DNA of 64,000 nt, taken from the UHGV virus genome UHGV-0039337; one strand, written 5' to 3'. How positions within the stretch are numbered: the first letter of the stretch is position 1; the number at the start of each line of letters is the position of its first letter. The position numbers were made by a program, and so were the translations under genes. The DNA comes from a virus. The notes under the pieces are model-generated. The model did no database searches. It had not been told where the DNA came from and saw only the letters and a program-made list of their open reading frames with translations. Below, piece by piece: positions 1 to 47,767 of this stretch.

Positions 1-89
1 ACGTAACTATAAATATGAATTATAGAACTACAAGTGGAGGCGGATACAGTAATAAAGATATAGAAAATATAATTAATAATTTCATGTAA
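1..89 (+). CDS. 3' end of an upstream gene (partial; only ~29 codons in window)
   Basis: Frame 3 is open from the window edge to TAA at 87-89 (..NYRTTSGGGYSNKDIENIINNFM*). A terminator follows immediately. Function cannot be assigned. Confidence 0.3.
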   Translation, partial: VTINMNYRTTSGGGYSNKDIENIINNFM

Positions 90-119
90 GGCTGATACAT
101 AAAAGTATCAGCCCTTTTT
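90..119 (+). terminator. rho-independent terminator
   Basis: Perfect 9-bp stem GGCTGATAC / GTATCAGCC with a 6-nt loop, followed by CTTTTT. Confidence 0.7.
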
Positions 120-140
120 GTAAAGGATGGTGAGATATGT

Positions 141-3100
141 TTGACTAATATAAATTATGATGAAATCGTTAAGAAGTATCAACAAATGGTTAAAAGTAGA
201 AAAGAAAGCGGAGATATAGATATAAATGACTATTTACCTAATATAAATGAAATGATTAAAGAAGATTGCGTATGGGATGTAGTAAAATCTATACAGAAAG
301 ATTTGGGAGATAAAAAAAGTAGTAAAGAAGATGCGGCTTATTATATAGAAAAACCTCCTATTACTAAACCTGGATATTATGAAGATAAACAATGCTTCGT
401 TCTTAAAGCTAGAAAATTTAAAGCTTCTAAAGGAGATTGGGATTTAGGAAATATAACAGGAGACACTTGGGCATTCAATATAGATGATTTAAGTGCAGGT
501 GGTTCCTTTACTGTAAATAATAAAACCTATAATTCTTTTAAAAATTATGCGATAGATAACCAAAAAATTAATTGTGCAAATCTTCAGGTAAGATCAGCTT
601 CTATTACTGCTAGTAAAATATGCCACTATACTGCTTGCGCGCTTCCTAACGATAAAGGCATAAAAACCGTTCAAGAAAAGTATGCAACAGCAGTATTAAA
701 ACGTTATAATGTTTTGCCACATAAGATAAATAAAAACAAATCAAAGGATCCTGATAAATGGACTATTACTAATTATAAAGATGACGATGTAATAAATTTC
801 TTAAATTATAACGGTACATATTGCCAAATAATAAAAGATTTGAACGCTAAAGATTATTTGCAAGATGAAACAAAAAAAAGTAACTACAGTTATTTTGTAA
901 TAGCTGCTTCTAATGATTGGGGTAGTGAAACTTTAAGGGACGGATATAAAGCACAATATAGAGTACGTAAATTAATAGAAAATAAAAACATAAAAGATAT
1001 AATAATAATCCTAGATAGGAATGCAGCAATAGGTAAAAAGATAGAGAAAACAAGTTTGTACTATAACTCGTTCTTCTTCAATCCTTCTCTTGTAGGACAA
1101 TTAATTAATGATGTTTTTAGTAGGGACATAATGGACTTCTCACTTGCTAGTGCTGATATACTTCCTTTTGGCTGTGATAGATACGGAGAAATGTTAGGAA
1201 ATGTATACGTTAAATTAAAAGCAGATACTGGTGATACATGGATAAACTTATCCAAATACGTTTTATCAGGTTCAGATTTTACAGAACCAGCGAATAAATT
1301 CTATGATGATTCATTAGATGAAATATATGGTGGAACAACTGATGCGTTTAGACAATGGAATACTGTAGGAAATAATTATAAATATGTTGATTCATTGACT
1401 GAAAGTGGCAAGAAATCATATAAAGATAGAATAAAACTACATAAGAGTTTAACTGGTATAGATTTTTCTGTAGCTCGAGATCATACAGTTCTATTAGGAG
1501 ATACTTTATTTATGATACCTCCTGAAGCTATTCACACATCTTCTAGCCTTGATTATGAAAAATTACCTATATTAAGAGGTAAAGGTTCTATGATGAAAAA
1601 TAGAGGAAATGTCGAAGAAGTCATAGAGCTAGAATTATATTTCAATGGAGAATATGGAATTAATGGTATACCATATGAAGTAAAGACTCCTAGCGGGCAA
1701 AAGCTTACTTATTTTATGAATGGGTTAAGGTCATTAATTGCACAATTTAGAGTTGCTCCATTTCTACCTATAGAAAATCATTATATAAATGACATATTAA
1801 ACATAGAAGCAGTGAGTCTAGTTAATATGAATGTATCAACACTCGATGGATTTCCTAGACTATTAAAAGTAGTTCTTACTCTTCGTGATTTTAATTATAG
1901 AGTATTTATGCCTGATTTACCATTACCTGAATACGATATAGAATCTACAGAGATATCGCAAACTCAACCTATATTTGCTCAACATTTTAATTGGGAATTA
2001 TTCAGATATTACTATCAACGTGGACTCATAAATGGGGACTTATTAGAACAATATAACTATAACTCTTATAAATATAGCGACTTTTTATATTCAAATAAAA
2101 ATGTATATAAATCTGCTGATTTAACAGATTCTAATTTTGAGTTATATATTCCTGATACGTCATGGCTAAAATATGCATTACAAGTTAAAAAGACTAGAGA
2201 TCAATATGGACAAATAGATACTAGCGATCTGGACAAAGACACTACCAATAAAAAAGATGAAAAAAAATCTATAAGTGATTTTACTGTCATACTTGGAGAC
2301 AAGCCATATTTTTCTAAAGGTGAATTAAAAGCAAATAATAAAGAACAGTATAGCGATCTAGATGAATTAGGAAGATGTGGAACTGCTTTTGCTATATTAA
2401 ATAAAAGCATGATGCCTAAAAGCAGTGAAAAAAGAGAAGACATAAGCAGTGTAACTCCTTCTGGTTGGAAGAACAAAACATATAGTTCGTTAAAAGATGA
2501 TTCTAATACTAGTGGTTCTTTATATAATCGCTGCCATTTAATAGGTTGGCAATTAACAGGACAAAATGCTAATAAAAAGAACTTAATAACAGGTACACGT
2601 TTGCTAAACGTTGGTATTAATGGAGATAATACACCTGAATATGGCGGTATGGTTTATTATGAAAATCTTGTAGCTAAATATTTAAAAAACAATCCTAAAA
2701 ATCATGTAGCTTACAGAGTTACTCCTAAATATAATGGAAGTAATTTAGTTGCTTCTGGTGTTCAGATGGAAGGTTATTCTATTGAAGATAATGGAAAAGG
2801 TGTATGCTTTAATGTTTATATAAGAAATATACAACCTGGAATATCTATAGATTATGCAACAGGTAATAGCAAACAATCTACACAAGAACAAAAAGAAGTA
2901 CTGTATAATTATTATGATTATAAAAATCCTAGAAATATGAAATTCGTACCATATTTACAATCTAAAACAGGTAAAAGTATTCCTATAGAATTAGACGCTA
3001 TTAGTTTTAATATGTCTAATTATTTTACGGAAACATATTTAAAAGCTGTAGATGGTTATGCTCCTCAATATATGGGCGGTAGTGATGTGAATATACAATT

Positions 3101-6100
3101 AAATATGACACTTACAGATGAATATCTAGTAAGTGCATTAAAGAATTTACCACATGTAATACTTGAAATGGTAAAAATTTATAGACGTGTAATGCCATGT
3201 TTCCCGCTTAAGATAAAAAATGAATATTTACAAATGATAGGTGTGAATGAAGTAGTATTTGATAACATAAGTGTATCTACTAAACCTGGACATCCTGGAA
3301 CATATGAAGTTACAGTTAAGCTTACTAGTATGGATCGTTCTATGAGACAAAGAGAAGCGTTAAAAAAAGCAGATTCTAAAGGAAATATGACAACTTCAGA
3401 TATTACTAATACTATAGGTAGTTATTTTAATTTACAAGATTCGTTAGCTGCAGCTGAATTATATCCTGATTTAGATTTGCCTACCATAGAAGAACTAAAT
3501 AAACTAGGTTGGAAATTTGCTAAATGGGCTAATGAAAAAAGAGTATATGTAGATCCTGATTTTTACATGTGCTATTCATTTCAATATGCTAGCAAATTAG
3601 TAAAAGAAGTTGTGAATAATGTATTATACAGAATATCTTACAATGCCGGTAATGATTCTATTAAAGCTGCAGCCAATGGCGAAAAAGAAAACGCTTCTAA
3701 ACAAAATAAGTCTAAAGAGATTAATTCATTACAAGTTATAGATGATAAAGGTATAGGGTTAAATGTATCTTCGGGTATAGAATGCGACGGAATTAATATG
3801 GATAAAAAATTAGGATTTGCTAACTTATATGAAAAAACAATGATTGATATACAAAATAAAGCAAACTCTGATGACACTAAAAAGAAAAAAGTAAAAAGTA
3901 ATTTGCCTACTAAAGAACAGCGTGAATCTACAATAAAAGCTATAGAATTTTTAACTGCTTCTGGTATAGAAAATGGATGGCAAATATGTCCTGGATGGTA
4001 TGCTCCATTATGTGATGATTATGTAAATAACTGTATAGAAAACTATGAGAAATCAGGAATAGAAAAGAAAAAAGATGGTGGAAGTAGTGAATACGATAAG
4101 TTTGCAGAAGAAATATATGACATCAGACATAGAGCTATTATGCTAATAAATAGAATATTAGATAAACCTTTAATTTCTGGTTCTGATAAATCAGATGATC
4201 CTTTAGTTTGTGTTCATGATGCTGTGTATAATCTATTAGCAAATAATGATGGTTCTAGATTAATAAATTTATTATGTCCTATGCAGGATGTTGCAAATAA
4301 TAGAGTAGAAACGCCTAATACTTCATATGTTGGAAGTGACAATATTCTAAAACTAGAATCAAAGTTTTTTGAAAAAGCTAATCCTCTTAAATGGATACAA
4401 GGGTTGTTATATTCATTAGCATGTTCTCGTTCAGGTGCAGAAACATACAGTGAATCTAAAAAAGACTGTAACTGGCAACCCGTACAATTTCGAACTACAA
4501 AAGATTCAAAGAAAATGCCTAACAATAAAATTAAACAAGGTAGAGGTATTAGTGGCGACGGTATGTTAGCAGAATCTGAAGAGTCATGGAAAAAAGATGG
4601 TATTAGTTTTGGTGCAGGACAAATAAGTGTATATAATAAATCAGAAATTAGAACTATGTTACAACCAGAAAGTAAGATTAAATACTTTGATTATAATTAT
4701 AAAACTGGAGCATCAGAATATTATAATAATATGTATTATAAAACTAAAAAAGCTAAGCGTAAAAGATTCTGCGAAACAGGTTTCATAGATCAATATTATA
4801 ACTATGTTGGTTATAATTCTAAAGAAGGGCAACAATTTATAGAACATATAAGTAATTCTCAAACAGCAAACTACGAAGCTTTATTACGTGAAGTGCTTAT
4901 GTATCTTAAATATCTTATAATGGAAGGTCTTATTTTTAATGAAGTAGATATTATAGCTGGAGATTGGACTAATGTATTAGATGATATAGTTAAATATGCT
5001 GGTGCTCTTCAAGATAATAGTAATCCACACGTTAATTATTTTGCATCACAAGGAAATATACACAATTCTATAGTAGATGCATCATCTCCTGATGACGAAG
5101 GAGATGGCGACGATACTGATGATAAAAAAGAAAACGATGAATTAGCCAGAATAGCAAATCATTTAAAGAAAGAAATACCTGATTCTTATAGTAAGTTATT
5201 TTGCTCTAGATTAGTTTATCCTTTTGCAATAGCTTCATGTAATAATCAAAAAGATATTCTTAACTTAATAAAGGATAGAGATTATGATACGCTTAGTGTG
5301 TACACTTTATCAGCTAATGTAGGTGGTTCTAATAATGATAAATTTGATAATTTTTTAAGTGCTATGTATGGTATAGGAATGATAGGTTCATGTAATACTA
5401 TGGATTCTGCAGAAACAACAAGTAATACTCAAAAGGCATTTAATACTTTAATGGCTGAAGCTTTTACTGCTATGTCTGATGATCCTAGATGTTACGCATT
5501 ACATAGTTATTATGACATGTGTGTAACAGATAAAAGAGGTAGATTATTAAGGGCTTTTCCTTGTTACTATATGTTATTTGTAGATGAAGGTAGAACTATA
5601 GGCTCATGGAAGTTATTTGATAATTTTTACAATATGTCAAGTATATCCAATTTGCAAGTAGTTAAGTCTAGAAAGATACCTGCAGATACTTGCACGTTTA
5701 CCATGTCTAATATGTTTATGTCATATGCTGATACGTATGATAATACAATATATCAACAATATGCAGATGTTTATGGATTTGGTGATGTATTTGCATCTAT
5801 ATTTTCACCTCATGCTTATGTATCAAAAGAAGATATGATAAGACAACGTAGACAATTAACAGATACTACAGCTATAGCTCCAGGTGTTCGTATACATGTA
5901 AGAATGGGATATGGTTCAGATGGTTCAAGATTACCTATAGTATTTAATGGTAAAGTTGCTGAAGTTAACTGTGGTGAAACAGTTGATATAGTTGCGCAAG
6001 GAGACGGACATGAATTAAATAATCCACTTAATGCATTAGGTGAATTAACAGCTATTAATTTAGACGAAAGTCAAGGATGGTTTACATTATTTAAAGATAT

Positions 6101-8561
6101 ACGTGGATCTCTTGCTCGTGGTGGCCAAACACCTAGAAATCTATTAGCTAAATTAAGTACGGCTCAATATGGAGGAGCTTTTAAAACTGCAGTTAGAGAA
6201 TATACAAAAGGTAGATTCTTTTATGATAATCCTTTTGGTATATATCATTTTGGAGATAAAAGATTTAAAGATATTTTTGAAGATAGTGAAATTGTACAAA
6301 ACATGTATGAAGTGTCTAACAAAACTATACTTAATGGTGTTAATGATCTATTAGATGATATGAGTACAGTTAATGTATCTCCAACTATTAACTGTAACAT
6401 ACAAGATAAGACATTATGGGATATAGGACATTTATGTGCTAACAGTGGCGATGATTATTATTTTGCAGTACGTGATTTTGGTATGAGAAGTACTATGTGT
6501 TTATGTAAAGCTAATCATTATTATGCTTATGAATATCAAGAAGTAGAAGCTAACGATACTATAGTAGAAAAACGTAAACCTTTTCAACAATTCCATTATT
6601 ATGACTCATACAATGATATTATTTATAATAGTTTAAAAGCTATTGAAACTAATATGAAAACTAATGCTGTTGGTACTTGGGAAGGTACAGATTGGTTATG
6701 GGGTACTGCTCAACAATCAGTTGGTCCTATATATCTTGATATGAATATATACCCTGAATATCAAAAATCTATGATGGTAGATACAGGGTTAATATCAGGT
6801 GGAGATGGTGGTATAGATATACCAGTATTAAATGCTCTATCAGAAAAATTTAATTATGATGAATATCAAGGTAGAGTTAATAAATCGTTAGCTGAAAAAG
6901 TAACTACTAATGTATTAAGACAATCTGTAAAAGATATGTATGATGGAGAAATATGTATATTGGGTGATTCTTCACTTAAACCATATGACAGAGTATCGTT
7001 GGTAGATTTGTATGAAGATGTTAGCGGAGACGTAGAAGTAGAAACAGTTATATATTCAATGAATATAGAAACAGGATTTACAACTACATTTATACCAGAT
7101 GTAATAGTAAGATCAAATCATACCAGTCAAGAGTTTGGAGTACAAACAACTTTAGGAAGTATGTTATTATGCTTGGGAGGAACTCTTGGACTTAAGTATG
7201 CTACAATGGCAAGTGCTGAAAAAGGAATGGCTGGATTATTTAAAATAGGATCTAAGAGTATAGTTAAAGAATTAGCTGGAAAAATAGTTACAGAATCTAC
7301 AACTAAAACTGCAATAAGCGCATTTCTTGAAGGTTTTAAAGATGCAGGAATAGGAAGCGTCCTTACCAATCCTGTAGCAATAGCTTCTACTGTGATAGCA
7401 GGAGCTAGTGTGTTTATGTTAACTCAAAACGTTATGGAAAGTTTTTATCGTTGGTGTCGTAATATACAAGCATTAACAGTTTTTCCTATTAGTAAAAATG
7501 GTAGATTATTAATAGCAGGTATGGCCGGACATAGAGGAACAGTATATGGATATAAATACGGAAAGGGAGCTATTGATAATTCTATTCAAGGTGTAGTAAT
7601 GAACTTTTTAGAGGGGACTACAGATACTGGAACTTCTGCTGATCCATTAATAAACGTTATAGGTCATGTGTTTAAGTTTATATTATGCGACGATAATTAT
7701 ACTAAAATAAGAAACAAATGGATTACTAGCTTAGGTCTTACTAATAGTGATGATATAGTTAATAAAGATGGTGCAAGTAAAAGCGTAAATCAAGAGGCAT
7801 TTTATCAATATATGAATAACTCAATATCAAAAGAATATACTTCTCGAGCAACTTATTTAGCGGCTATGAAAACTAAACCTAGAATTACAAGCTTTAGTAC
7901 TTCTACTAATGTAAACGGTAAATCAAAAGTGAGAACTAGTGAAATATATCTTAAATATCAAATAGGCGGAGTAAATGATTTATCTAATCCTGATAAAGAT
8001 CCTACCAGAGAAGCAGTAACAGTTAAACAATTAGCTACTAATGAAAGAGTAAAATCATTACTTCCTGTAGAAGATGATCCTGATATTAAATTAGCTATAG
8101 TTGGTTCTCACCCTGTAATTAAAAAGTTTAACTTTGCACATTCATCTTCTTATCTTACTTTTAATTTAAAAATGGAAAATGAGAATACTATTATTCGTTA
8201 TATGGCAGAAGGTACTGACCCTACAATATTCGATTTGCCTATGGTACAAGAAGATGCTTTACTGTTAATTAAACTTATAATAAATGCAGATAATCTTAAA
8301 GGTAAAACAGTTACTTTTATGAGTGGTACAAGAGTTAACAGCACTTCTTCATGGAAGAGCACAGGTTTCTGGTTTTCTTTATCTTGTGATGATATGACAG
8401 CTTTAGAAGCTGCTAGTGAAGAACTTAAAAAAGAATCTAGTTGGACAAAATCTAAATCTACATTTGCCTATAAACGTTCTCAAAATTCTATACAATATAC
8501 TGTTTATGCACCTATAGAAACAGTAGATAAAACTATTTATGAATCTGCAGGAGATGATTAA
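141..8561 (+). CDS. giant tail protein (2806 aa), probable tape-measure protein, with an embedded EndA/NucM-type DNA/RNA non-specific nuclease domain (about nt 2279-2866) and a C-terminal pair of hydrophobic/transmembrane-like segments (about nt 7140-7430)
   Basis: TTG start at 141 after GGATGGTGA. Uninterrupted 8.4 kb ORF in AT-rich DNA. Internal segment ..ISSVTPSGWKNKTY..SLYNRCHLIGWQLTGQNANKKNLITGTRLLN..MVYYENLVAKYL..VAYRVTPKYNGSNLVASGVQMEGYSIEDNGKGVCFNVYIRNIQPGISIDYATG matches the streptococcal EndA / Bacillus NucA DNA-entry-nuclease family pattern (PsGW .. dRGHLigyqL .. mvyyE .. yrVtPiY .. fNVyv.N.q .. IdYatG). Hydrophobic stretches LGSMLLCLGGTLGL and PVAIASTVIAGASVFML near the C-terminus, together with the position immediately upstream of baseplate genes, fit a tape measure. 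Confidence 0.55.
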   Translation: MTNINYDEIVKKYQQMVKSRKESGDIDINDYLPNINEMIKEDCVWDVVKSIQKDLGDKKSSKEDAAYYIEKPPITKPGYYEDKQCFVLKARKFKASKGDWDLGNITGDTWAFNIDDLSAGGSFTVNNKTYNSFKNYAIDNQKINCANLQVRSASITASKICHYTACALPNDKGIKTVQEKYATAVLKRYNVLPHKINKNKSKDPDKWTITNYKDDDVINFLNYNGTYCQIIKDLNAKDYLQDETKKSNYSYFVIAASNDWGSETLRDGYKAQYRVRKLIENKNIKDIIIILDRNAAIGKKIEKTSLYYNSFFFNPSLVGQLINDVFSRDIMDFSLASADILPFGCDRYGEMLGNVYVKLKADTGDTWINLSKYVLSGSDFTEPANKFYDDSLDEIYGGTTDAFRQWNTVGNNYKYVDSLTESGKKSYKDRIKLHKSLTGIDFSVARDHTVLLGDTLFMIPPEAIHTSSSLDYEKLPILRGKGSMMKNRGNVEEVIELELYFNGEYGINGIPYEVKTPSGQKLTYFMNGLRSLIAQFRVAPFLPIENHYINDILNIEAVSLVNMNVSTLDGFPRLLKVVLTLRDFNYRVFMPDLPLPEYDIESTEISQTQPIFAQHFNWELFRYYYQRGLINGDLLEQYNYNSYKYSDFLYSNKNVYKSADLTDSNFELYIPDTSWLKYALQVKKTRDQYGQIDTSDLDKDTTNKKDEKKSISDFTVILGDKPYFSKGELKANNKEQYSDLDELGRCGTAFAILNKSMMPKSSEKREDISSVTPSGWKNKTYSSLKDDSNTSGSLYNRCHLIGWQLTGQNANKKNLITGTRLLNVGINGDNTPEYGGMVYYENLVAKYLKNNPKNHVAYRVTPKYNGSNLVASGVQMEGYSIEDNGKGVCFNVYIRNIQPGISIDYATGNSKQSTQEQKEVLYNYYDYKNPRNMKFVPYLQSKTGKSIPIELDAISFNMSNYFTETYLKAVDGYAPQYMGGSDVNIQLNMTLTDEYLVSALKNLPHVILEMVKIYRRVMPCFPLKIKNEYLQMIGVNEVVFDNISVSTKPGHPGTYEVTVKLTSMDRSMRQREALKKADSKGNMTTSDITNTIGSYFNLQDSLAAAELYPDLDLPTIEELNKLGWKFAKWANEKRVYVDPDFYMCYSFQYASKLVKEVVNNVLYRISYNAGNDSIKAAANGEKENASKQNKSKEINSLQVIDDKGIGLNVSSGIECDGINMDKKLGFANLYEKTMIDIQNKANSDDTKKKKVKSNLPTKEQRESTIKAIEFLTASGIENGWQICPGWYAPLCDDYVNNCIENYEKSGIEKKKDGGSSEYDKFAEEIYDIRHRAIMLINRILDKPLISGSDKSDDPLVCVHDAVYNLLANNDGSRLINLLCPMQDVANNRVETPNTSYVGSDNILKLESKFFEKANPLKWIQGLLYSLACSRSGAETYSESKKDCNWQPVQFRTTKDSKKMPNNKIKQGRGISGDGMLAESEESWKKDGISFGAGQISVYNKSEIRTMLQPESKIKYFDYNYKTGASEYYNNMYYKTKKAKRKRFCETGFIDQYYNYVGYNSKEGQQFIEHISNSQTANYEALLREVLMYLKYLIMEGLIFNEVDIIAGDWTNVLDDIVKYAGALQDNSNPHVNYFASQGNIHNSIVDASSPDDEGDGDDTDDKKENDELARIANHLKKEIPDSYSKLFCSRLVYPFAIASCNNQKDILNLIKDRDYDTLSVYTLSANVGGSNNDKFDNFLSAMYGIGMIGSCNTMDSAETTSNTQKAFNTLMAEAFTAMSDDPRCYALHSYYDMCVTDKRGRLLRAFPCYYMLFVDEGRTIGSWKLFDNFYNMSSISNLQVVKSRKIPADTCTFTMSNMFMSYADTYDNTIYQQYADVYGFGDVFASIFSPHAYVSKEDMIRQRRQLTDTTAIAPGVRIHVRMGYGSDGSRLPIVFNGKVAEVNCGETVDIVAQGDGHELNNPLNALGELTAINLDESQGWFTLFKDIRGSLARGGQTPRNLLAKLSTAQYGGAFKTAVREYTKGRFFYDNPFGIYHFGDKRFKDIFEDSEIVQNMYEVSNKTILNGVNDLLDDMSTVNVSPTINCNIQDKTLWDIGHLCANSGDDYYFAVRDFGMRSTMCLCKANHYYAYEYQEVEANDTIVEKRKPFQQFHYYDSYNDIIYNSLKAIETNMKTNAVGTWEGTDWLWGTAQQSVGPIYLDMNIYPEYQKSMMVDTGLISGGDGGIDIPVLNALSEKFNYDEYQGRVNKSLAEKVTTNVLRQSVKDMYDGEICILGDSSLKPYDRVSLVDLYEDVSGDVEVETVIYSMNIETGFTTTFIPDVIVRSNHTSQEFGVQTTLGSMLLCLGGTLGLKYATMASAEKGMAGLFKIGSKSIVKELAGKIVTESTTKTAISAFLEGFKDAGIGSVLTNPVAIASTVIAGASVFMLTQNVMESFYRWCRNIQALTVFPISKNGRLLIAGMAGHRGTVYGYKYGKGAIDNSIQGVVMNFLEGTTDTGTSADPLINVIGHVFKFILCDDNYTKIRNKWITSLGLTNSDDIVNKDGASKSVNQEAFYQYMNNSISKEYTSRATYLAAMKTKPRITSFSTSTNVNGKSKVRTSEIYLKYQIGGVNDLSNPDKDPTREAVTVKQLATNERVKSLLPVEDDPDIKLAIVGSHPVIKKFNFAHSSSYLTFNLKMENENTIIRYMAEGTDPTIFDLPMVQEDALLLIKLIINADNLKGKTVTFMSGTRVNSTSSWKSTGFWFSLSCDDMTALEAASEELKKESSWTKSKSTFAYKRSQNSIQYTVYAPIETVDKTIYESAGDD

Positions 8562-8564
8562 TCA

Positions 8565-8921
8565 ATGGGTAATTTAAGTGACGCTATTAAAGGTAAAGTA
8601 ATAGCAGGGAATAATAAATATGTAAATCAACAAGAAAAAAGAGCGACAGTAATAGCAACAAATAAAACAAGTAACCGATGTGTTATTTCTACTATTAATA
8701 GAGACGGTATAGTACAGGTATATTACAACGTACCTGTATTATATACCGCAACTGATAAAACTAATGTATCATGGTTTCCTGAAAACGGTGAAGAGGTTAT
8801 GGTATCAGAAAAAAATAAAGGATATGTTATAACTGGACCTTTTTCTACTAGACCTCATGTATCAACTGAATTTGATTTTTATTCAATGGGAACAGATGAT
8901 GCTGATGGAAATTTACAATAG
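8565..8921 (+). CDS. small baseplate/tail-tip assembly protein (beta-rich; possibly a gpV/XkdR-like hub component)
   Basis: 118-aa ORF 4 nt after the giant gene. Position and size resemble the small proteins that follow the tape measure in PBSX-like and Clostridium myophage tail modules. Confidence 0.35.
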   Translation: MGNLSDAIKGKVIAGNNKYVNQQEKRATVIATNKTSNRCVISTINRDGIVQVYYNVPVLYTATDKTNVSWFPENGEEVMVSEKNKGYVITGPFSTRPHVSTEFDFYSMGTDDADGNLQ

Positions 8922-8932
8922 GTGGTGATTAA

Positions 8933-9475
8933 ATGGCAAGTAAAGAAACTTATATATCAGCTTCTGATTTATGGGAGTTAGTAAATAATAATACTATTCA
9001 AGCAGCTGCAGGTGTAGACAAAGGAATTATAGGAAGAAACGGAGCTTCTGACATTATTAAAGGTAGTAACGTTAAAGTAACATCTACTAGTATGTATGCA
9101 CAAAGAATAACCAATGGTGATGTAGGAAATATAATAGATGAATCTTTACAACATAATATCAAAACTGTTCGTGCCAATGTTTCATGTAGTGATTTAATAG
9201 TTAATAATCATAAGATGAATTCTTATTTATATGAAATAACGAACATGAAAAAACTAAAAGGAACAGCTATAGGAAATTTTACTGTATCTGGTACAGTATT
9301 AGTTAAGACATATGATCCTAATCTTGAAAAGTGGGTATTAATACGTAGACAGGTAAGAGTGCCTATGTTTAGTAATTTATTAGATCCTTATAATATAGAT
9401 GAAAGATTAGATATACCTGATGCAAGCGAAACTATTTATAAATATAAAATAAACAAAGATGACGGTAATAAATAA
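8933..9475 (+). CDS. baseplate protein, function unknown
   Basis: 180-aa ORF. Its stop TAA overlaps the next start (TAATG), implying translational coupling. Confidence 0.35.
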   Translation: MASKETYISASDLWELVNNNTIQAAAGVDKGIIGRNGASDIIKGSNVKVTSTSMYAQRITNGDVGNIIDESLQHNIKTVRANVSCSDLIVNNHKMNSYLYEITNMKKLKGTAIGNFTVSGTVLVKTYDPNLEKWVLIRRQVRVPMFSNLLDPYNIDERLDIPDASETIYKYKINKDDGNK

Positions 9476-10008
9476 TGTATTATGATTTTCAATTAAATGA
9501 AAAAGGAGATATTTTATTTAAACAGTCTAATTGTGAAAACCCATCTTTTCAATTTGATTTTTATGTTGCAAAATCAAAAGGTCTTATATTTGATTTCTAT
9601 GTAGATAATAATGAAAACAAACAAGAATACTTAGATAATTTATATCCTCAGTTTGTTTTTGAATTTTACATAGATTCTCCTAAAAACGATAAGAAAATAA
9701 TGTGTATAGATACGAAAGAAGATTATATATATCAGCAAATAAAATTAAGACTAAGTTCTGCATTAGGAACTATAAAAAATAATGAAAACATAGGTAGTAA
9801 TTTAGATATTTACAAACATATGTTATTAAATCCAGATAAAAAGAAAAATTATACTGAACTTATTGATTGTGTTAGAGAAGCTATAAAAGATATTTTACCT
9901 AACGCTAAAATAGAAATATATAATAAACCTAGTATATATACTGATTTTACTAATAGTATAATAATATCTATAATTCAAGATGATTATAACTATTACTATT
10001 ATCTATAA
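9475..10008 (+). CDS. baseplate wedge protein, gp25/GPW-like
   Basis: 177 aa. Segment DYIYQQIKLRLSSALGTIKNNENIGSNLDIY resembles the GPW/gp25 signature (q.i...L.T..GE....p.fG..L). Confidence 0.4.
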   Translation: MYYDFQLNEKGDILFKQSNCENPSFQFDFYVAKSKGLIFDFYVDNNENKQEYLDNLYPQFVFEFYIDSPKNDKKIMCIDTKEDYIYQQIKLRLSSALGTIKNNENIGSNLDIYKHMLLNPDKKKNYTELIDCVREAIKDILPNAKIEIYNKPSIYTDFTNSIIISIIQDDYNYYYYL

Positions 10009-10010
10009 AG

Positions 10011-10823
10011 GTGGTGATCATTATAAAAACGTTTAATGAAATATATGAAAGCTTAAAAAATAAGTTTTATAAAAAAACTGATTTAGATATACAAAAAGGT
10101 AGTGTTATTGATATGTTTATGTCTAGTATTGCAAATGAAATAGAAGAAGCTCATCAAGTTATAGAAGATAATAAAAAACCATATCTATTTACTACTCAAT
10201 CTGGAAATGAATTAGATAGTACGGGATTTTTCGTTTCGTGTCCTAGATACGATAATGAAAGTGATAGCAATTATTTTTCACGTATGATTGAATGGAATGC
10301 TAACAATGCAATGTGCAATTCTACTTCTATAAATAACGCATGTAAGAATCTTAAGTATTCTAAAGCCGCTAATTACGTGGCTTATACTAAAGGTGTAGGA
10401 ACTGCTACTATATATTTAATACCATTAACTTATAGTGAAAAAGATAAAGAGCTATGTTTAAAAGAGGCTCAACAACAGGTTAGTAAAGTAATTAATCCAT
10501 CTTCAAGGGTAGAATTTAAAATACCAGAGCCTCGATATATTAAGCTTGTAGCTTATATTGATATAATAGAAAATGCAGATACTGCTGTTGTAAAATCTAA
10601 TATAGTTAAAAATATTAAAGAATATATAAATGGAATAGCTCCTGGTGATAAAATGTATCTGGGGCAAATAAACAGAATAGGATTAAACTTTAAAGAAGTT
10701 GAATATTTTAACATTGTTCAAGTTTATATAAACGATAAAGAATCTACAGACTTTGAAATATTACAAACTGTAGAAGCTAAGTTTATATTTGACGAATTTA
10801 TATGGTGGAACGTGGAGGGATAG
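10011..10823 (+). CDS. baseplate protein (possibly J-like); start codon uncertain
   Basis: 270-aa ORF. The track start (GTG) lies inside the SD AAAGGTGGTGA, so the true start may be a nearby non-ATG codon. Confidence 0.35.
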   Translation: MVIIIKTFNEIYESLKNKFYKKTDLDIQKGSVIDMFMSSIANEIEEAHQVIEDNKKPYLFTTQSGNELDSTGFFVSCPRYDNESDSNYFSRMIEWNANNAMCNSTSINNACKNLKYSKAANYVAYTKGVGTATIYLIPLTYSEKDKELCLKEAQQQVSKVINPSSRVEFKIPEPRYIKLVAYIDIIENADTAVVKSNIVKNIKEYINGIAPGDKMYLGQINRIGLNFKEVEYFNIVQVYINDKESTDFEILQTVEAKFIFDEFIWWNVEG

Positions 10824-10824
10824 A

Positions 10825-13800
10825 ATGTTTGATTATAATAAAATGATTCAGCGTGCTGTTCAATTTTTTCCTACATGGTCTGATATTAGAAAGAGACATA
10901 AAACATCAACTGGTGGAAAATTAATAGGCTCTACTTTAGAAGAAATATGTGAATTGGAAGATGCTATTAAAGAATATACTAAATATTACTTCCTTGATAC
11001 ATATGAAGGTCATGAAGATGAAATTGTGGCCTTTTCTTATAAATTTGCTATAGGTATTATAGATGATTTAACTACAGTCAATGTAAAATATAAAAAAGAA
11101 AATATAATCATAACTGAAGATATTGATAAACTATTAGCTCATAATTTAATAGCTTATTACGAAGGTGGAAATATCTATATAAATGATAGTATAAATCCAT
11201 CTGATATAAGTATATTTATTAACAAAGATAAAATAGATGCAACTTATGATTTAGTAAGTGTTTGGAATATATTTGATGAATTTGCATGTTTCGTTGATGT
11301 TCAAAGACATCCCGGAGAAACTAATAGCCAGTTAGTTAAAAGAATATTATATAGAACTAGATATAAACCTAATGCATCTATTGAAGGATTACAAAATGCT
11401 ATAATGACTGAACTATTAACAGAGTTTCCTGATATAAACAGAGATGAAATACAAATAGAGCAAGTTAATGATAAGAATTTAAGACAGGCTTATAAAGATT
11501 TTGATACTTTACTTGACTTTTTAAATTCTATAAACTGTGATGTGTATAGATGGAAACGTTGGGATCTTAATGAATGGAAACATAATTTTAAAAGTATAAG
11601 TTATATTCCTACATTATGGAATGAATCTATAACTAATTTTAAAAATGGTATAGGTTATAATGATGACTGCAAAGTATCCATTGCTAGTAATATTCAAAAA
11701 ACAGATGCAACTATTACATTGTATAATAAATCAAAAGAAACAATGAATAAATATTTAGCAGATAAAAAACTAGAGAAAGATATTACGTTTCAATTTAAAA
11801 AATATAATGATATATTAAACTTCAATACTGTTAATTATACAATTCAGGCAGCAAAATTATCTAGGCTATATCCTGAAAAAATCAAGATGAATATGTATCA
11901 AAAAATTAATACGGTTTCAGAAGTTTCTGTGGGTTCAATATTTAAATTCGGTCATGGTATTACACCTAATAGATCAAATTGTATAATAGAAGATGCTTAT
12001 CCTTATAGATTTAAATTTGAACCAAAAAACAACAATAAAGATATAGAAATTAGTGAATGTACGGTTACATACGTTAATACTACTACTAATGAACCAGTAG
12101 AAGTCGTTAATCTATTAAAGAACAAAACAGGGTTTAAAATTAATGCATTCGGTTCATTAGTATCTAACTCTATAAGAAAAAGTATAACTAAAGTAGAAGA
12201 TTTTGATAGTAAGAATTATAATAACTTTAAGAATTTAGATAATAACAAAGGTATACAAATGACAGGTACAGTTGGTACTGGTGTAAAAACATTATATAAT
12301 TTAGGTGGACAAAAAGTATCTTACAATGCATCATGTGAGCCTTCTTTAATTACTAAAGAAATGGATTTAATTGAGCTAGATAGTGTATATGGAGTTTGGG
12401 ATAAAAATAATATAAACTTTTATCCCAATGACTTAAATAAAAAAGCAATAATAAAACTTAAAGCTAACCAATTTTCATTTGATGTTTTGTCTAATAATAC
12501 GGTAGACGTTATGGTCAGATATAACACTAAAGGTAATTACGATATAATAGAAAAAGCTGCATCTGGTACTACTTGGAAAACTAAAGAATTTGATATACCA
12601 CAATATATGGAAATAGTTATATCAAGCAAAGCAAAAGAAAATATTAAGATTGGTAACTTCAAATATTCTAATTACACTGTTAAATTTCAATATAAAACTG
12701 CTAATGACAGTACATATCGTGATTTATATAATAACATATTGCCTATTAATAACAATATAAGTTTTAAAGTTATTGTTTCAAGTTCTAGTGGAAGCAATCC
12801 TATTATTCATGGTATATACATAGGTTCTAATTTAAAAAATACAACATATGTTACAGATAGTTTTCCTCCAAAGAATAATACTTATCGTGAAATAGAAATA
12901 ACTACTAATGCTAAAGTTACTTTAGTTAAAAGAGATATCTTTGATTCTAAGGATGCATTATATACCGAAAACTATGATCCTATAGTATCTTATATAGCAA
13001 AAGATAATGATGCTTATATTCGTCTAGATCTTAGTGAATATTCTAACATAAACAATATTAACACTACTATTGGTCAAATACAAAAAACTGAAGAAAGTGG
13101 AGCAAGTTATTATAACTTACTATTAACTAAAGGACAAGAGATTAAACGTATAACTATAGATGGTATTAAAGATAAGGCTACTTATGAAGTTTCACTTCTT
13201 GATATTGTTAACAAAGAATTAAAAGAACCGTTCAATGTTACTAAAGACACGTTGTATTGTAGTTTGTTAACTAAAGGAGTAATAGTTGTAAAGAATAGTG
13301 ACGATGGGCAAGTACAATTACTTTCTCTTAATAGTTCATTGTTCTACGGTACTGAAGGAGTTAGATATGAGTTTGTTAATATACCAGATAACATAGGTGT
13401 AGTATGGGGCGTGGGAGATGGTTTGTATAGTGATAGTGTTACAGGATCTTTTGATTATGTTTCGTTTTACGAAGAAGGGTCCGTAATACATACTGCACAT
13501 AATTCATATAACTTATTTATTAATGAAATGAAAAACGTTTCTGTAGCTGAAAACTTTACATATCCAGATTTATATAATAATAAATTATTATACTTCTACA
13601 CAGTAACTACTAATACTGATAATACCGGTGTAAGATTTTATAACTATTTAGACGAAGGCAAAACATTTGATGATTTAGTAGATTGGAGCATCGGACTTAA
13701 AAATTTATATATAAAAAATACTAATGACTACAATAATGAATCTATATATAGCATAAGTGTATTAGATTATACTGATAAATGCGTACTTAATGAATATATA

Positions 13801-15993
13801 AACTTAAAAGAATCTTATGATATAACTAATAATAATACTATATATACAGAACAATATATAGTAGTACCGCCTAAAGGAATGACAGTAAGATATAAAACTT
13901 ATGATGGGACAACGCAAACAGAAAAACTATTAAAGACAGAAGTTATTGTTGCTGACGGTACTATGTTTAAAAAGTTACAGTATTCTAATATAGATAAAAT
14001 ATTAAGTATAAAAGCTAGATATAAAAATGACAATGTAGATGTTTATTATAATCTATTAAATGATGAAGGTATTATAGTTTGGAATAAGAAATTTGAAATA
14101 GGTACAGTGATAGAATTAAGTTACACAATAAAAAAACCAGTAGCTTTGGTGTTTGATTTAGATTTATTATATAAATTAACTGGATATACTGTAGAAACAT
14201 ATAAAAAACTTAATACGTATTATTTATCAGACATTGATAATGGTTCTACTTATGATTTACGTAACTTTGATGATTATGAAGATTCTGATTTAGCTTACAT
14301 ACAATGTAAAGAACCTACTTTTGAAAGTCAAATGCTTGATGAGTATATAGTAAAATTTAACAAGCATATGCAAGAAAAGAGTGTATTGGTAAAGACAGGT
14401 TATTATTATTTTAATGGAGTAGAATATTATTTATTTAGTGAAAAAGGAGAAAAACAACTAAAAAATAATCGTTATATAATTTACAACAATGTAGACGTTA
14501 ATGATGAATATTTACATACATATAAACGTAGCAATAACTATGTACGTAATAGCGAAATGTTGACACGTAACATAAATGATTTATATAGTTATGATTGTAA
14601 TATACCAATAGAATCTCCAAAATATAATAAATATACTGCATGTGATTCATATAATAACTGGAATACTTTTAATACAACTTTAACGCTAACAGAAGAATTA
14701 TATATAAAGAGACTGTTAAAAGAGGAAGACTATGAAGGCTTTAATAATGTGGCTTTAAAACTAACTGCTAATAAAACAAATGCAATAAATTACGCTTATA
14801 TAAATATAACAGAAAACATAAGTAATATCACTTATTTAACTCTTGCAGCTACATCAGATTTAACTATATATATTGCTGAGGAGTTTAAACTTGGAAAATT
14901 AGATCCTAAAACTGCTTTATCTATAGTTCCAATATATGAAGTTAAAGCTATACATAACTCATATATAAGAACTTGTAAGTTTAATACTAAACCTGATACT
15001 AGATATTATTTAATTGTAATTGGAGAAGGAGTAATTGACGATATAGTTATGTCAGATTCTTTAGCTAATACCGTTAATTATCATATTAAAAATATAGAAA
15101 AGTTAGGATTCTATTTTAATGAGTCCAAAGTTGAAGGAACTACTTATAAAATGCGTATAGATGACAATTTTAATAGCATAAATAGTGGAGCTAGCTTATG
15201 TAGTGATCATTATATAAGAACCGTAGGTAATATAACATGGAATGCTACTAAAGTTAAAACATATAACACTATGGAGGATTTTTTAAATCCTAATTGTTAT
15301 AAAGATGTAGAATTAATAATATCAGATTATATAAAATCTCCATCTACTACTAGTTGTAGATTTGTAACAGACTATATAGAAATAAATCCTAAAGTTATAA
15401 ATAGATTGTTTGTAAAAGTTAATGACGTATCAATTAATAACATGGACAATTTTAAGATTACATTGTTAGGAACATCTAATAAAAAAGTAAAAGATATAGA
15501 GATAACAACTGTTCATAATCATTTTGCTTTTGCTTATGGCAGTGACTTATTACGTTTTGTTAAAGCACAGATAGAAATACCTGAGAATTATGTGGTAGAT
15601 AAGATTGAGTTCTTAATAGAGTATAAAAGTGATAAAGATAATGCTCCTATTCTTACAGCACCATTAACAGGAAGTGTTATAAGTCCTGTATATGATAGTC
15701 AACAGGCTTTAATTTATAGCGTTAAAAATATAAACATTAACGATATCAGTAATATAAATGATGTAGATATTTATATAAGAGCCATGACTGAAGATAATAC
15801 TGCAGGAGTATGGAGTTTATGGAACAAATTAGAATTAATTAATATGGACGGCAAAGTAATATATGATTCAGTAAACACTAAGAAATTTTCATTTAATAGT
15901 ATGCCTGTAAGATATTTTCAATTTAAAATAGTATTAAAGTCAAGAAGCGCCTATATAAATCTCGACAGTATTGATATCGAGGTGGTGAATTAA
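10825..15993 (+). CDS. giant baseplate/tail structural protein (~1723 aa)
   Basis: Track start 10789. ATG at 10825 is preferred because GGAGGGA sits 5 nt upstream and this removes the apparent overlap with the previous gene. No recognisable catalytic motif. Confidence 0.5.
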   Translation: MFDYNKMIQRAVQFFPTWSDIRKRHKTSTGGKLIGSTLEEICELEDAIKEYTKYYFLDTYEGHEDEIVAFSYKFAIGIIDDLTTVNVKYKKENIIITEDIDKLLAHNLIAYYEGGNIYINDSINPSDISIFINKDKIDATYDLVSVWNIFDEFACFVDVQRHPGETNSQLVKRILYRTRYKPNASIEGLQNAIMTELLTEFPDINRDEIQIEQVNDKNLRQAYKDFDTLLDFLNSINCDVYRWKRWDLNEWKHNFKSISYIPTLWNESITNFKNGIGYNDDCKVSIASNIQKTDATITLYNKSKETMNKYLADKKLEKDITFQFKKYNDILNFNTVNYTIQAAKLSRLYPEKIKMNMYQKINTVSEVSVGSIFKFGHGITPNRSNCIIEDAYPYRFKFEPKNNNKDIEISECTVTYVNTTTNEPVEVVNLLKNKTGFKINAFGSLVSNSIRKSITKVEDFDSKNYNNFKNLDNNKGIQMTGTVGTGVKTLYNLGGQKVSYNASCEPSLITKEMDLIELDSVYGVWDKNNINFYPNDLNKKAIIKLKANQFSFDVLSNNTVDVMVRYNTKGNYDIIEKAASGTTWKTKEFDIPQYMEIVISSKAKENIKIGNFKYSNYTVKFQYKTANDSTYRDLYNNILPINNNISFKVIVSSSSGSNPIIHGIYIGSNLKNTTYVTDSFPPKNNTYREIEITTNAKVTLVKRDIFDSKDALYTENYDPIVSYIAKDNDAYIRLDLSEYSNINNINTTIGQIQKTEESGASYYNLLLTKGQEIKRITIDGIKDKATYEVSLLDIVNKELKEPFNVTKDTLYCSLLTKGVIVVKNSDDGQVQLLSLNSSLFYGTEGVRYEFVNIPDNIGVVWGVGDGLYSDSVTGSFDYVSFYEEGSVIHTAHNSYNLFINEMKNVSVAENFTYPDLYNNKLLYFYTVTTNTDNTGVRFYNYLDEGKTFDDLVDWSIGLKNLYIKNTNDYNNESIYSISVLDYTDKCVLNEYINLKESYDITNNNTIYTEQYIVVPPKGMTVRYKTYDGTTQTEKLLKTEVIVADGTMFKKLQYSNIDKILSIKARYKNDNVDVYYNLLNDEGIIVWNKKFEIGTVIELSYTIKKPVALVFDLDLLYKLTGYTVETYKKLNTYYLSDIDNGSTYDLRNFDDYEDSDLAYIQCKEPTFESQMLDEYIVKFNKHMQEKSVLVKTGYYYFNGVEYYLFSEKGEKQLKNNRYIIYNNVDVNDEYLHTYKRSNNYVRNSEMLTRNINDLYSYDCNIPIESPKYNKYTACDSYNNWNTFNTTLTLTEELYIKRLLKEEDYEGFNNVALKLTANKTNAINYAYINITENISNITYLTLAATSDLTIYIAEEFKLGKLDPKTALSIVPIYEVKAIHNSYIRTCKFNTKPDTRYYLIVIGEGVIDDIVMSDSLANTVNYHIKNIEKLGFYFNESKVEGTTYKMRIDDNFNSINSGASLCSDHYIRTVGNITWNATKVKTYNTMEDFLNPNCYKDVELIISDYIKSPSTTSCRFVTDYIEINPKVINRLFVKVNDVSINNMDNFKITLLGTSNKKVKDIEITTVHNHFAFAYGSDLLRFVKAQIEIPENYVVDKIEFLIEYKSDKDNAPILTAPLTGSVISPVYDSQQALIYSVKNININDISNINDVDIYIRAMTEDNTAGVWSLWNKLELINMDGKVIYDSVNTKKFSFNSMPVRYFQFKIVLKSRSAYINLDSIDIEVVN

Positions 15994-46939: not shown

Positions 46940-47227
46940 ACGACCGATAGTACTTCAGCCTAATACTTATTGCGACTAAGATTACTATAATTAAATCTAA
47001 TAATGGTATTATAAAAGGAGTTTTAATATTCAATCTACCTATATAATGCAGCAAACTATGCAGTATATTCTGGTAGCTTAACAATGAAAATTACTTACAC
47101 AGAATAATGTTTAGTTAAATTAACTAAGCAAAGTAATAATATATATGAATGCAGTAATAGGATTAGTCAAATATTAGCTAGTCCTATTATTATGTATATA
47201 TTATTTACAGAGAAAAGGAGAAATATA

Positions 47228-47767
47228 ATGGCAAATTTAACATTTCTAGAAGCATTAAATAAATCATTAATTGCTACTAAAAAATATGTTGATAACTCAG
47301 TAGCTGGAATAGTGGATTCAGCGCCAGAAACTTTAAATACTTTAAAAGAATTATCTACAGCTTTAGGAGATGATCCTAATTTTGCTACTACTGTTGCAAC
47401 TAATATAGGAAAAAAAGTAGATAAAATAGAAGGGAAAACATTAACAGCTAATGATTTAACAAATGAATTAAAAGCTAATTACGATGCTGCATATGCTCAT
47501 AGTCAAGTGGCACATGCTCCAGCTGATGCACAAAAAAATAGTGATATAACTAAAGATGAAATAGAAGCTAAATTAACTGGTGATATAAGTTCTCATACAC
47601 ATAGCCAGTATTTAACAGAACATCAAAATTTGGATGAATATGCTCCTAAGAAATATGTGGATGATAAAATGGCAAATTTAAGTATAGTAAAAATATCTAA
47701 AACTGATTTTGAAGCATTAACTACAAAAGATGCTAATACTTTATATTTAGTATTAGAAGATTCATAA
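47228..47767 (+). CDS. short tail fibre protein (179 aa)
   Basis: ATG 47228 after AAAAGGAGAAA (track start 47192). PETLNTLKELSTALGDDPNFATTVATNIGKK and a C-terminal TDFEALTTKDANTLYLVLED are typical short-fibre motifs. SSHTHSQY is an HxH motif. Confidence 0.5.
   Translation: MANLTFLEALNKSLIATKKYVDNSVAGIVDSAPETLNTLKELSTALGDDPNFATTVATNIGKKVDKIEGKTLTANDLTNELKANYDAAYAHSQVAHAPADAQKNSDITKDEIEAKLTGDISSHTHSQYLTEHQNLDEYAPKKYVDDKMANLSIVKISKTDFEALTTKDANTLYLVLEDS

Follow-up and report, generated by a model that had tools for sequence, protein, structure and literature searches.

The 64,000-nucleotide (nt) stretch of DNA analysed here (UHGV virus genome UHGV-0039337, hereafter the window) encodes at nt 141..8561 (+) a protein of 2806 amino acids (aa) in which a nuclease domain is built into a giant baseplate protein. 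On the basis of sequence and a structural model, aa 733-911 are assigned as an EndA/Spd1/Sda1-type beta-beta-alpha-metal (His-Me) non-specific nuclease with a complete active site. By homology the carrier is a hub-family protein, the ortholog of gp147 of Bacillus phage 0305phi8-36, and not the tail tape measure protein proposed in an earlier sequence-only reading. We tentatively favour, at somewhat less than even probability, a virion-tethered DNase at the tail tip which would act on infection, probably outside the cytoplasm.

The nuclease domain suspected in the sequence-only reading was recovered by sequence and structure comparisons. When the protein was compared with Pfam, Endonuclea_NS_2 (PF13930) matched aa 733-878 with an E-value of 1.4e-21 and 77.5 bits (cut-off 27 bits). 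The six EndA/NucA motifs that had been picked out by eye are all present in the expected order between aa 769 and 908: SSVTPSGW (aa 769-776; nt 2445-2468), NRCHLIGWQL (aa 796-805; nt 2526-2555), MVYYE (aa 837-841; nt 2649-2663), YRVTPKYNG (aa 858-866), FNVYIRN (aa 890-896) and IDYATG (aa 903-908; nt 2847-2864). When aa 701-920 were compared with PDB sequences using phmmer, Sda1 (E-value 4e-20), Spd1 (1e-17), group B Streptococcus (GBS) NucA (1e-8) and EndA (5e-8) were found. An AlphaFold2 model of aa 680-925, built from a 17-sequence family alignment, gave a nuclease core with predicted local distance difference test (pLDDT) values of 85-98 between disordered linkers, and the core contains a beta-beta-alpha-metal finger within a larger beta-sheet. 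The best Foldseek matches of this model were NucA (E-value 9e-16), EndA (4e-14), Sda1 and Spd1 (range 1e-11 to 9e-16), with target-normalised template modelling (TM) scores of 0.66-0.72 (about 0.7) to 4qh0, 3owv, 5fgw and 2xgr. The type VII secretion system (T7SS) toxin EsaD and the Serratia nuclease were more distant structural matches.

In the alignment with Spd1, H799 corresponds to His121, N823 to Asn145, E841 to Glu164 and R765 to Arg90, and a change of any of these four Spd1 residues inactivates the enzyme (PMC3258162). In enzymes of this type the His serves as general base, the Asn binds the metal and the Glu places the water. The Asn145 position is independently marked by PDB entry 2xh3, the Spd1 N145A mutant. 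The four residues and R797 are invariant in 23/23 cassette-bearing relatives, down to 42 % identity, so that the catalytic His, Asn and Glu are conserved. The N in place of D in the DRGH motif had been considered a threat to activity. This concern is moot because active Spd1 itself carries N-R-G-H (Sda1 has D-R-S-H and the cassette N-R-C-H), and Spd1 Asn118Ala and Arg119Ala mutants remain active (PMC3258162). From these residues we infer that the cassette is probably catalytically active.

Two cysteines are also retained, Cys746 (nt 2376-2378) in 22/23 and Cys798 (nt 2532-2534) in 20/23 relatives. Cys798 is the C of N-R-C-H and adjoins the catalytic His799. Both occur in secreted stand-alone homologues of the cassette, and Sda1 has Ser at both positions. 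It may be speculated that the pair forms a disulfide or redox switch on the active site.

The identity of the carrier was established from its backbone. When the whole protein was compared with 50,697 phage genomes using tblastn, the backbone was found in five jumbo phages (E-values 8e-53 to 7e-80), namely Moorella phage MTATph1 and Bacillus phages KLEB27-3, Edson, WH1 and 0305phi8-36. ORF147 of the latter ('baseplate hub protein') aligned in three collinear BLAST blocks with an E-value of 8e-53. The PHROG built around gp147 (phrog_20474) matched with an E-value of 3.9e-159. A megablast search against the same genomes returned no near-identical match to the gene. In an earlier analysis, gp147 was placed with the T4 gp27 hub (gp27/gpD-like) as a 'hyperplastic' homologue, in which a conserved scaffold for assembly bears fused enzymatic domains that can be exchanged (Hardies, Thomas & Serwer 2007; PMC2147016).

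Gene order agrees with this. In 0305phi8-36, gp145 (1930 aa), gp146 (tape measure, 2537 aa), gp147 (hub) and gp148 (P2 gpV-like) are followed by two small ORFs (gp149 and gp150) and gp151 (gpJ-like), and the window repeats the order from the hub onward with products of 118, 180, 177 and 270 aa. The 270-aa product (10011..10823) matches phrog_6, baseplate wedge (E-value 4e-11), and the placement of the giant gene directly upstream of baseplate genes thus stands. Pairwise BLAST of the small downstream proteins with gp148 and gp151 was not significant (strong divergence). Upstream of the hub gene, the 98 %-identical metagenomic relative L003 (233-kb contig) has a 2089-aa gene and a 3025-aa gene; nt 1-88 of the window are the 3' end of the latter (98 % identity to L003). 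A separate gene of 3020-3154 aa lies directly upstream of the hub in L003, L008, L009 and L010, and the synteny around the hub is kept in all four. The 3025-aa protein had no PHROG match and a marginal BLAST match to gp146 (E-value 0.019); on position and size, it is assigned as the probable tape measure.

Because of the orthology, the synteny and the 2007 analysis, we place the protein in the hub family. The tape-measure assignment of the hub gene is not supported, as the protein is orthologous to the hub and not to gp146, a larger gene lies upstream in the tape-measure position, and no tape-measure family in Pfam, PHROG or NCBIfam matches it; its best phage matches are hub, baseplate and virion proteins. 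NCBIfam returned nothing for the hub or its five neighbours. Since the carrier is a hub and not a ruler, the very long tail once predicted from this gene is now predicted from the 3025-aa gene. Of the hydrophobic C-terminal segments described earlier, one strong window (aa 2407-2429) was retained, in a Gly/Ala-rich stretch starting at about aa 2334. Giant hubs of the gp147 family are easily taken for tape measures, and a likely annotation error is corrected here; the label 'endolysin' of PHROG 20474 is another mislabel of the family. By homology, the hub protein would be present in the virion at the tail tip, presumably as a trimer (three copies per virion) if gp27-type hubs are a guide.

The features of the gene and its surroundings are as follows. 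Mean identities are to the window over 22 cassette-bearing relatives, and ratios of nonsynonymous to synonymous substitution rates (dN/dS) were calculated by the Nei-Gojobori method for the window and L008 (81 % aa identity).

nt 1..88 (+): 3' end of the upstream giant gene (98 % identity of window 1-200 to L003 9861-10060; L003 gene table)
nt 90..119 (+): terminator-like hairpin, 9-bp stem (5 GC pairs), GGCTGATAC...GTATCAGCC, then a T-run
nt 141..8561 (+): gene for the giant baseplate hub / tail-tip protein, ortholog of 0305phi8-36 gp147 (homology, synteny)
nt 141..1160 (+): N-terminal region, aa 1-340, mean identity 0.52, conserved within the gut-phage family only
nt 1161..2210 (+): conserved block A, aa 341-690, common to gp147 (aa 264-431) and Moorella phage MTATph1
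nt 2211..2336 (+): linker 1, aa 691-732, charged, low-complexity, predicted disordered (pLDDT <30)
nt 2337..2873 (+): predicted EndA/Spd1/Sda1-type nuclease cassette, aa 733-911 (PF13930, AlphaFold2, Foldseek)
nt 2433-2435, 2535-2537, 2607-2609 and 2661-2663 (+): catalytic codons R765, H799, N823 and E841
nt 2874..2915 (+): linker 2, aa 912-925, predicted disordered (pLDDT about 26), mean identity 0.41
nt 2916..3740 (+): conserved block B, aa 926-1200, downstream edge of the slot (BLAST to gp147 aa 497-765)
nt 3741..5360 (+): variable middle region, aa 1201-1740, mean identity 0.51, dN/dS 0.24
nt 5361..7130 (+): 'hub core', aa 1741-2330, most conserved, common to gp147 aa 838-1568
nt 7131..7490 (+): Gly/Ala-rich hydrophobic region, aa 2331-2450 (hydropathy)
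nt 7491..8558 (+): C-terminal region, aa 2451-2806; gp147 instead ends in NlpC/P60 and M23 peptidoglycan hydrolases
nt 8565..10823 (+): four small baseplate genes (118, 180, 177 and 270 aa; sizes and order), in positions matching gp148-gp151

The hub gene has a TTG start 7 nt downstream of a ribosome-binding site (AGGAtGGTGA). No Pfam, PHROG or NCBIfam match was obtained for aa 1-340, and no recognisable domain was found in aa 1201-1740 or, with Pfam, in aa 2451-2806. Linker 1 has a mean identity of 0.30 and varies in length across the family alignment. Block B has a weak DUF6046 match (aa 954-1065; E-value 3e-4) that passes in relatives and in 5/17 diverse hubs. The best phrog_20474 stretch is aa 1779-2327, within the hub core, which is presumed to be the assembly domain. 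The Gly/Ala-rich region contains a single strongly hydrophobic, transmembrane-like 19-residue window (aa 2407-2429; nt 7359-7427), and about 210 additional helical residues are inserted in this region in distant relatives.

Blocks A and B are the edges of a slot in which the cassette lies. Among the giant hubs of this family in the protein database (2796-3022 aa; contigs of up to 273 kb), P0001-P0021, P0024 and P0025 carry PF13930, and the more distant members are without it. In the nuclease-less relatives, BLAST alignments end at aa 685-700 and restart at aa 905-920, with another module of ~200 aa in between. P0024 and P0025 have the nuclease followed by this ancestral module, which looks like an intermediate state. 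When 54 hub ORFs from bacterial-genome bins and IMG/VR were surveyed, the block-A hidden Markov model (HMM) matched 53/54. The cassette is alone in the slot in the clade of the window (L003, L008, L011) and is accompanied by the ancestral module in L010, L022, L023 and L032. All other hub ORFs except that of L014 have nuclease-free slots of 150-297 aa. Apart from the L014 nuclease, the slot fillers of seven relatives contained no Pfam domain. The hub ORFs of L016 (slot about 6767-7633) and L029 are broken by in-frame stop codons, which may reflect misassembly, a pseudogene or the recoding of stop codons known from some large gut phages.

The contig with the L014 hub (L014:4133-13192; 3019 aa) is 238 kb long and was assigned by binning to a faecal Bacilli metagenome-assembled genome (MAG). 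The slot of this hub (L014:6302-7552) consists of the ancestral module and then a different PF13930 nuclease (32.6 bits) with the motif DEGHVIADSLGG...NITPQN, in which the H and N motifs are intact. The best PDB relative of this nuclease is the T7SS toxin EssD/EsaD (8guo; E-value 8e-4), and no similarity to the window cassette was detectable (E-value 0.35). Because both the subtype and the module order differ, the sequences indicate an independent capture in the same slot. A BtI1 homologue of the gp147 hub was previously noted to carry a staphylococcal-nuclease-type domain (Hardies 2007; PMC2147016). The hub lineage has thus acquired nucleases at least three times (EndA/Spd1 type, EsaD type and BtI1 staphylococcal nuclease).

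The arrangement had been thought to be undescribed. This appears to hold for the EndA-type fold and its position, and does not hold for a hub nuclease domain as such, given the BtI1 case of 2007 (PMC2147016). That single earlier case had a different fold and a different position and was left unexplained. What we believe to be new, within the searches made, is the internal EndA/Spd1-type cassette, its conservation in a gut jumbo-phage clade, the defined slot and the second capture of EsaD type. Among the best 150 of 4124 cassette homologues (1.84 billion representative proteins), the only giant carriers were the gp147-type hub family, and the BFVD matches of the cassette were small stand-alone viral proteins only.

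The comparison with 0305phi8-36 gp147 and its BtI1 and BwK1 homologues shows what is shared and what is not. Blocks A and B and a 680-aa core are common at 26-34 % identity, the gene follows the tape measure and precedes gpV-like and gpJ-like genes, and a conserved scaffold bears exchangeable enzymatic domains, among them already a nuclease-type domain in the BtI1 homologue. However, gp147 has C-terminal NlpC/P60 and M23 wall hydrolases and no nuclease, and the window protein is about 900 aa longer. The BtI1 nuclease has a staphylococcal-nuclease fold and is N-terminal, whereas that of the window is a PF13930 His-Me nuclease in an internal slot. With Spd1, Sda1, EndA and GBS NucA, the cassette shares the fold, the catalytic His/Asn/Glu and the product-binding Arg, and Spd1 and Sda1 are likewise phage-encoded. 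Unlike the cassette, these are ~250-aa enzymes with signal peptides, secreted or membrane-anchored, and in bacterial use (evasion of neutrophil extracellular traps (NET), DNA uptake).

The closest relatives of the cassette by tblastn are stand-alone genes of gut 'Heliusvirales' phages (47-54 % identity, same N-R-C-H), whose hosts are Blautia, Faecalimonas, Clostridium and Oscillospirales. These homologues sit among replication genes. The 'Heliusvirales' nucleases (Blautia phage NatCom_2932 XTK82083.1; phrog_36807 and phrog_5170, function unknown) share the conserved Cys pair with the cassette, but they are independent 330-440-aa genes; their export signals and Cys-rich C-terminal tail are missing from the hub cassette. 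The protein of the Blautia phage starts with a lipoprotein signal (...LMLSGC...) and that of an Oscillospirales phage has N-terminal membrane segments. Because of these signals, the donor family is considered extracytoplasmic, like EndA, Spd1, Sda1 and NucA. The stand-alone gut-phage nucleases are, from their sequences, the likely donor pool. In the hub, the cassette is internal to the 2806 aa and the N-terminus of the protein has no export signal.

The source of the window is an uncultured gut (human or animal) jumbo myophage of about 220-270 kb. Relatives come from human gut metagenomes, including one Hadza sample, and others are on contigs that binning placed in Clostridium, Clostridia, Bacilli, Bacillota and 'Gemella' MAGs. 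A low-GC member of the Bacillota is the probable host, binning being weak evidence. The window has a GC content of 26-34 % (AT-rich), with all genes on the + strand and no tRNAs.

Mean identity was 0.66 for the nuclease core and 0.63 for the whole protein, compared with 0.30-0.41 for the linkers, 0.67-0.72 for the flanking blocks and 0.83 for the hub core. The dN/dS was 0.31 in the nuclease core, 0.16 in the flanking blocks, 0.058 in the hub core and 0.33-0.38 in the linkers. The cassette is under purifying selection that is looser than that on the scaffold.

The tail-tip DNase that we favour would have arisen as follows. The cassette would have been captured from secreted or lipoprotein DNases encoded stand-alone by phages of gut Clostridia, at first standing beside the original slot module and later replacing it in the clade of the window. 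As the hub is built into the virion, a few nuclease copies would be placed at the tail tip, each hanging on two disordered linkers between blocks A and B. The enzyme would work when the tail engages the cell (adsorption or penetration), outside the cytoplasm, and its target would be extracellular or surface-bound DNA in which the very long tail and the baseplate could otherwise be caught or held up. The parallel would be the hub-borne peptidoglycan hydrolases by which relatives clear the wall.

Action outside the cytoplasm is favoured because the presumed donors are extracellular, as are the enzymes EndA, Spd1, Sda1 and NucA. It is also favoured because related hubs bear accessory domains that degrade the envelope from outside, with NlpC/P60 and M23 on gp147 and M23 or NlpC/P60 on the distant members P0199, P0200 and P0202, and because the Deep-Blue Gp189 and Vp4 Gp110 hubs are lytic in vitro (PMC11406892). 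These hub-borne 'ectolysins' of Gram-positive myophages and the T4 gp5 lysozyme resemble the window protein in having an enzyme on the central hub or spike, where it is the first to reach the envelope; they differ in that their peptidoglycan cutting is demonstrated, whereas the activity in the window is that of a predicted nuclease. Neither the window hub nor any of 17 diverse gut-phage hubs showed a peptidoglycan hydrolase domain, and a scan of 38 window ORFs revealed no tail lysin.

Several observations weigh against the tail-tip DNase. Some concern the hub itself. The AlphaFold2 model of aa 1740-2500 (13-sequence alignment) had a mean pLDDT of 36.6, too low for a comparison with gp27, gpD or Mu gp44. 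When six sub-alignments were compared with T4 gp27, P2 gpD and a gpD family profile using hhalign, the probability was <=3 %, the gpD profile being narrow (all members >=77 % identical to P2 gpD). The same limit (<=3 % everywhere, narrow gpD profile) applied when the slot-flanking blocks were considered as gp27 domains 1 and 3, with the nuclease at 'domain 2'. Pfam searches of 13 core segments at E-values up to 10 gave no hub family, and PDB profile searches with two family alignments were negative for the backbone. Virion incorporation follows from homology to gp147, and the GenBank note of gp147 lists no mass-spectrometry detection.

Other points against it concern the enzyme and its place of action. 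The dN/dS of the cassette (0.31) is no lower than that of the linkers (0.33-0.38) and twice that of the flanking blocks. A hub, central in the baseplate, is a poor site for a matrix-clearing enzyme in comparison with fibres or spikes. As the protein has no signal peptide and is synthesised in the cytoplasm, an active non-specific nuclease should threaten the replicating phage DNA there. No inhibitor or immunity gene candidate linked to the cassette was found within 10 kb on either side; over this distance nuclease-bearing L003, L008 and L010 do not differ in gene content from nuclease-less L009. The L014 cassette belongs to the EsaD branch, the characterised member of which is a toxin acting inside target cells, and this favours an injected effector. 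Finally, a 2022 review states that eDNA (extracellular DNA) degradation by phages has not been reported.

A broader account, which leaves the compartment open, appears possible but doubtful to us. The virion would be a nuclease-delivering contractile injector, and a gut jumbo-phage lineage would have repeatedly armed its hub with nucleases (EndA/Spd1, EsaD and BtI1 types). DNA would be cut at or inside the target at infection, and this DNA could be surface eDNA, that of competing mobile elements or the host chromosome. Some mechanism, possibly the Cys746/Cys798 pair, would protect the producing cell from the enzyme.

The rival that survives best, although we consider it unlikely, is an injected nuclease effector, where contraction would drive the hub and its nuclease through the envelope into the cytoplasm. 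There it would cut host DNA or RNA (shut-off, nucleotide scavenging) or destroy resident or incoming competitor DNA, the tail working like a type VI secretion system (T6SS) or an extracellular contractile injection system (eCIS) with a nuclease on its gp27/VgrG-like tip. The carrier is indeed the phage counterpart of VgrG/gp27, and PF13930 domains often serve as warheads of polymorphic toxins (Rhs, FhaB and T7SS systems). The uptake of an EsaD-type toxin nuclease in the same slot by the sister lineage L014 points in the same direction, as does the transmembrane-like segment at aa 2407-2429, which fits membrane insertion at the tail tip. Virion enzymes that enter with the DNA are, moreover, an established phage strategy (polyvalent proteins). 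Evolved VgrG and PAAR/Rhs of the T6SS and EsaD/EssD of the T7SS have nucleases of the same superfamily, on a gp27/VgrG-like carrier.

However, in those T6SS and T7SS effectors the toxin domain is C-terminal and accompanied by an adjacent immunity gene, whereas the window cassette is internal, about 1900 residues from the C-terminus, and no immunity or inhibitor gene is linked to it. The window cassette itself groups with the secreted EndA/Spd1 enzymes, and lipoproteins are its closest relatives. Hubs of studied myophages are not known to pass into the cytoplasm. A phage tail, unlike these secretion machines, must also deliver its own genome, and a non-specific nuclease just ahead of that genome would endanger it.

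A late role inside the infected cell or at lysis, with presence in the virion incidental, is improbable. Excess hub would degrade host DNA for nucleotide recycling, or thin the lysate for the long-tailed progeny. Stand-alone homologues do adjoin replication genes in temperate or virulent gut phages, induction switches on the expression of prophage DNases such as Spd1, and released phage DNases were proposed as a possible route of eDNA degradation in the 2022 review. For such a role, however, a stand-alone gene would suffice, and yet the fusion to a structural protein of fixed stoichiometry is kept across 23 divergent relatives. Together with the second nuclease type in the same slot, this argues that tethering to the hub was itself selected, and a cytoplasmic non-specific nuclease during replication and packaging would be costly.

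It is still harder to maintain that the cassette is a domesticated, non-catalytic module, which would bind DNA or serve a structural purpose (holding the genome end at the tail tip, decorating the baseplate), and we regard this as very improbable. The dN/dS of the cassette, which exceeds the value of the neighbouring blocks and lies near that of the linkers, would fit such a module, as would the sister clades with no nuclease in the slot, and the problem of toxicity in the cytoplasm would disappear. On the other hand, the four residues essential in Spd1 do not vary in any of the 23 relatives, at overall identities as low as 42 %, the modelled fold is complete and of high confidence, and independent captures (L014 with intact H and N motifs; BtI1) are hard to explain without catalysis.

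That the protein is after all a tail tape measure, with the nuclease ejected through the tube ahead of the genome, can hardly be sustained: giant size, a position upstream of baseplate genes, a hydrophobic segment near the C-terminus, the M23 similarity that the tape-measure families phrog_10030 and phrog_23188 share with gp147 and the fact that tape measures of some phages bear enzymatic domains speak for it, and the hub orthology, the 3025-aa gene directly upstream, the missing tape-measure match in Pfam and PHROG and a most conserved 590-aa core predicted as mixed strand and helix with no long helix (low-confidence model) speak against it.

Virion enzymes are known for polysaccharide and peptidoglycan, and a virion-borne DNase has so far been discussed as a hypothesis only. 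The fusion described here is intact in at least 23 divergent gut jumbo phages, and the repeated capture of nucleases in the same slot suggests a recurring advantage of a tail-tip nuclease. If active, the tail-tip DNase would be a new class of entry-associated phage enzyme and a functional link between phage tails and nuclease delivery by T6SS and eCIS. It would also raise the question of how a non-specific nuclease stays silent during assembly, and could provide eDNA-degrading phage parts for use against biofilms.

Some further features of the window were noted. The strong hairpin at nt 90..119 is the sole terminator-like site within nt 1-9000; it separates the gene in the tape-measure position from the hub gene and is kept in L003. 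An element of this kind, a candidate intrinsic terminator or attenuator, would not be expected inside a late operon. Downstream of the small baseplate genes, a 1734-aa ORF is listed at 10789-15993 (+) with a TTG start that gives a 35-nt overlap with the preceding gene. The gene as called in relatives begins just past the preceding stop (1722 aa in L003), and the true start is probably near nt 10825.

A 464-aa serine recombinase (49512-50906, +; PF00239 Resolvase, E-value 1.6e-22) is found inside the tail-fibre block. On one side of it lies a protein bearing a Phage_tail_C tip domain (47192-47767), on the other a fibre protein with collagen repeats (50985-52934). The only inverted repeats observed around the recombinase are weak and AT-rich, with no sign of a Gin/Cin-type invertible fibre segment, and it may be an integrase or a mobile insertion. 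The structural block also includes an 873-aa product (32948-35569, +) with purple-acid-phosphatase N-terminal and calcineurin-like metallophosphoesterase domains, a candidate virion-borne phosphoesterase for which teichoic acid or nucleic acid is a possible substrate. It is followed by a 2149-aa product (35591-42040, +) with a CotH kinase domain (aa 750-967; E-value 3e-14) and weak matches to BspA-type leucine-rich repeats (LRR) and laminin-G/ConA-like domains.

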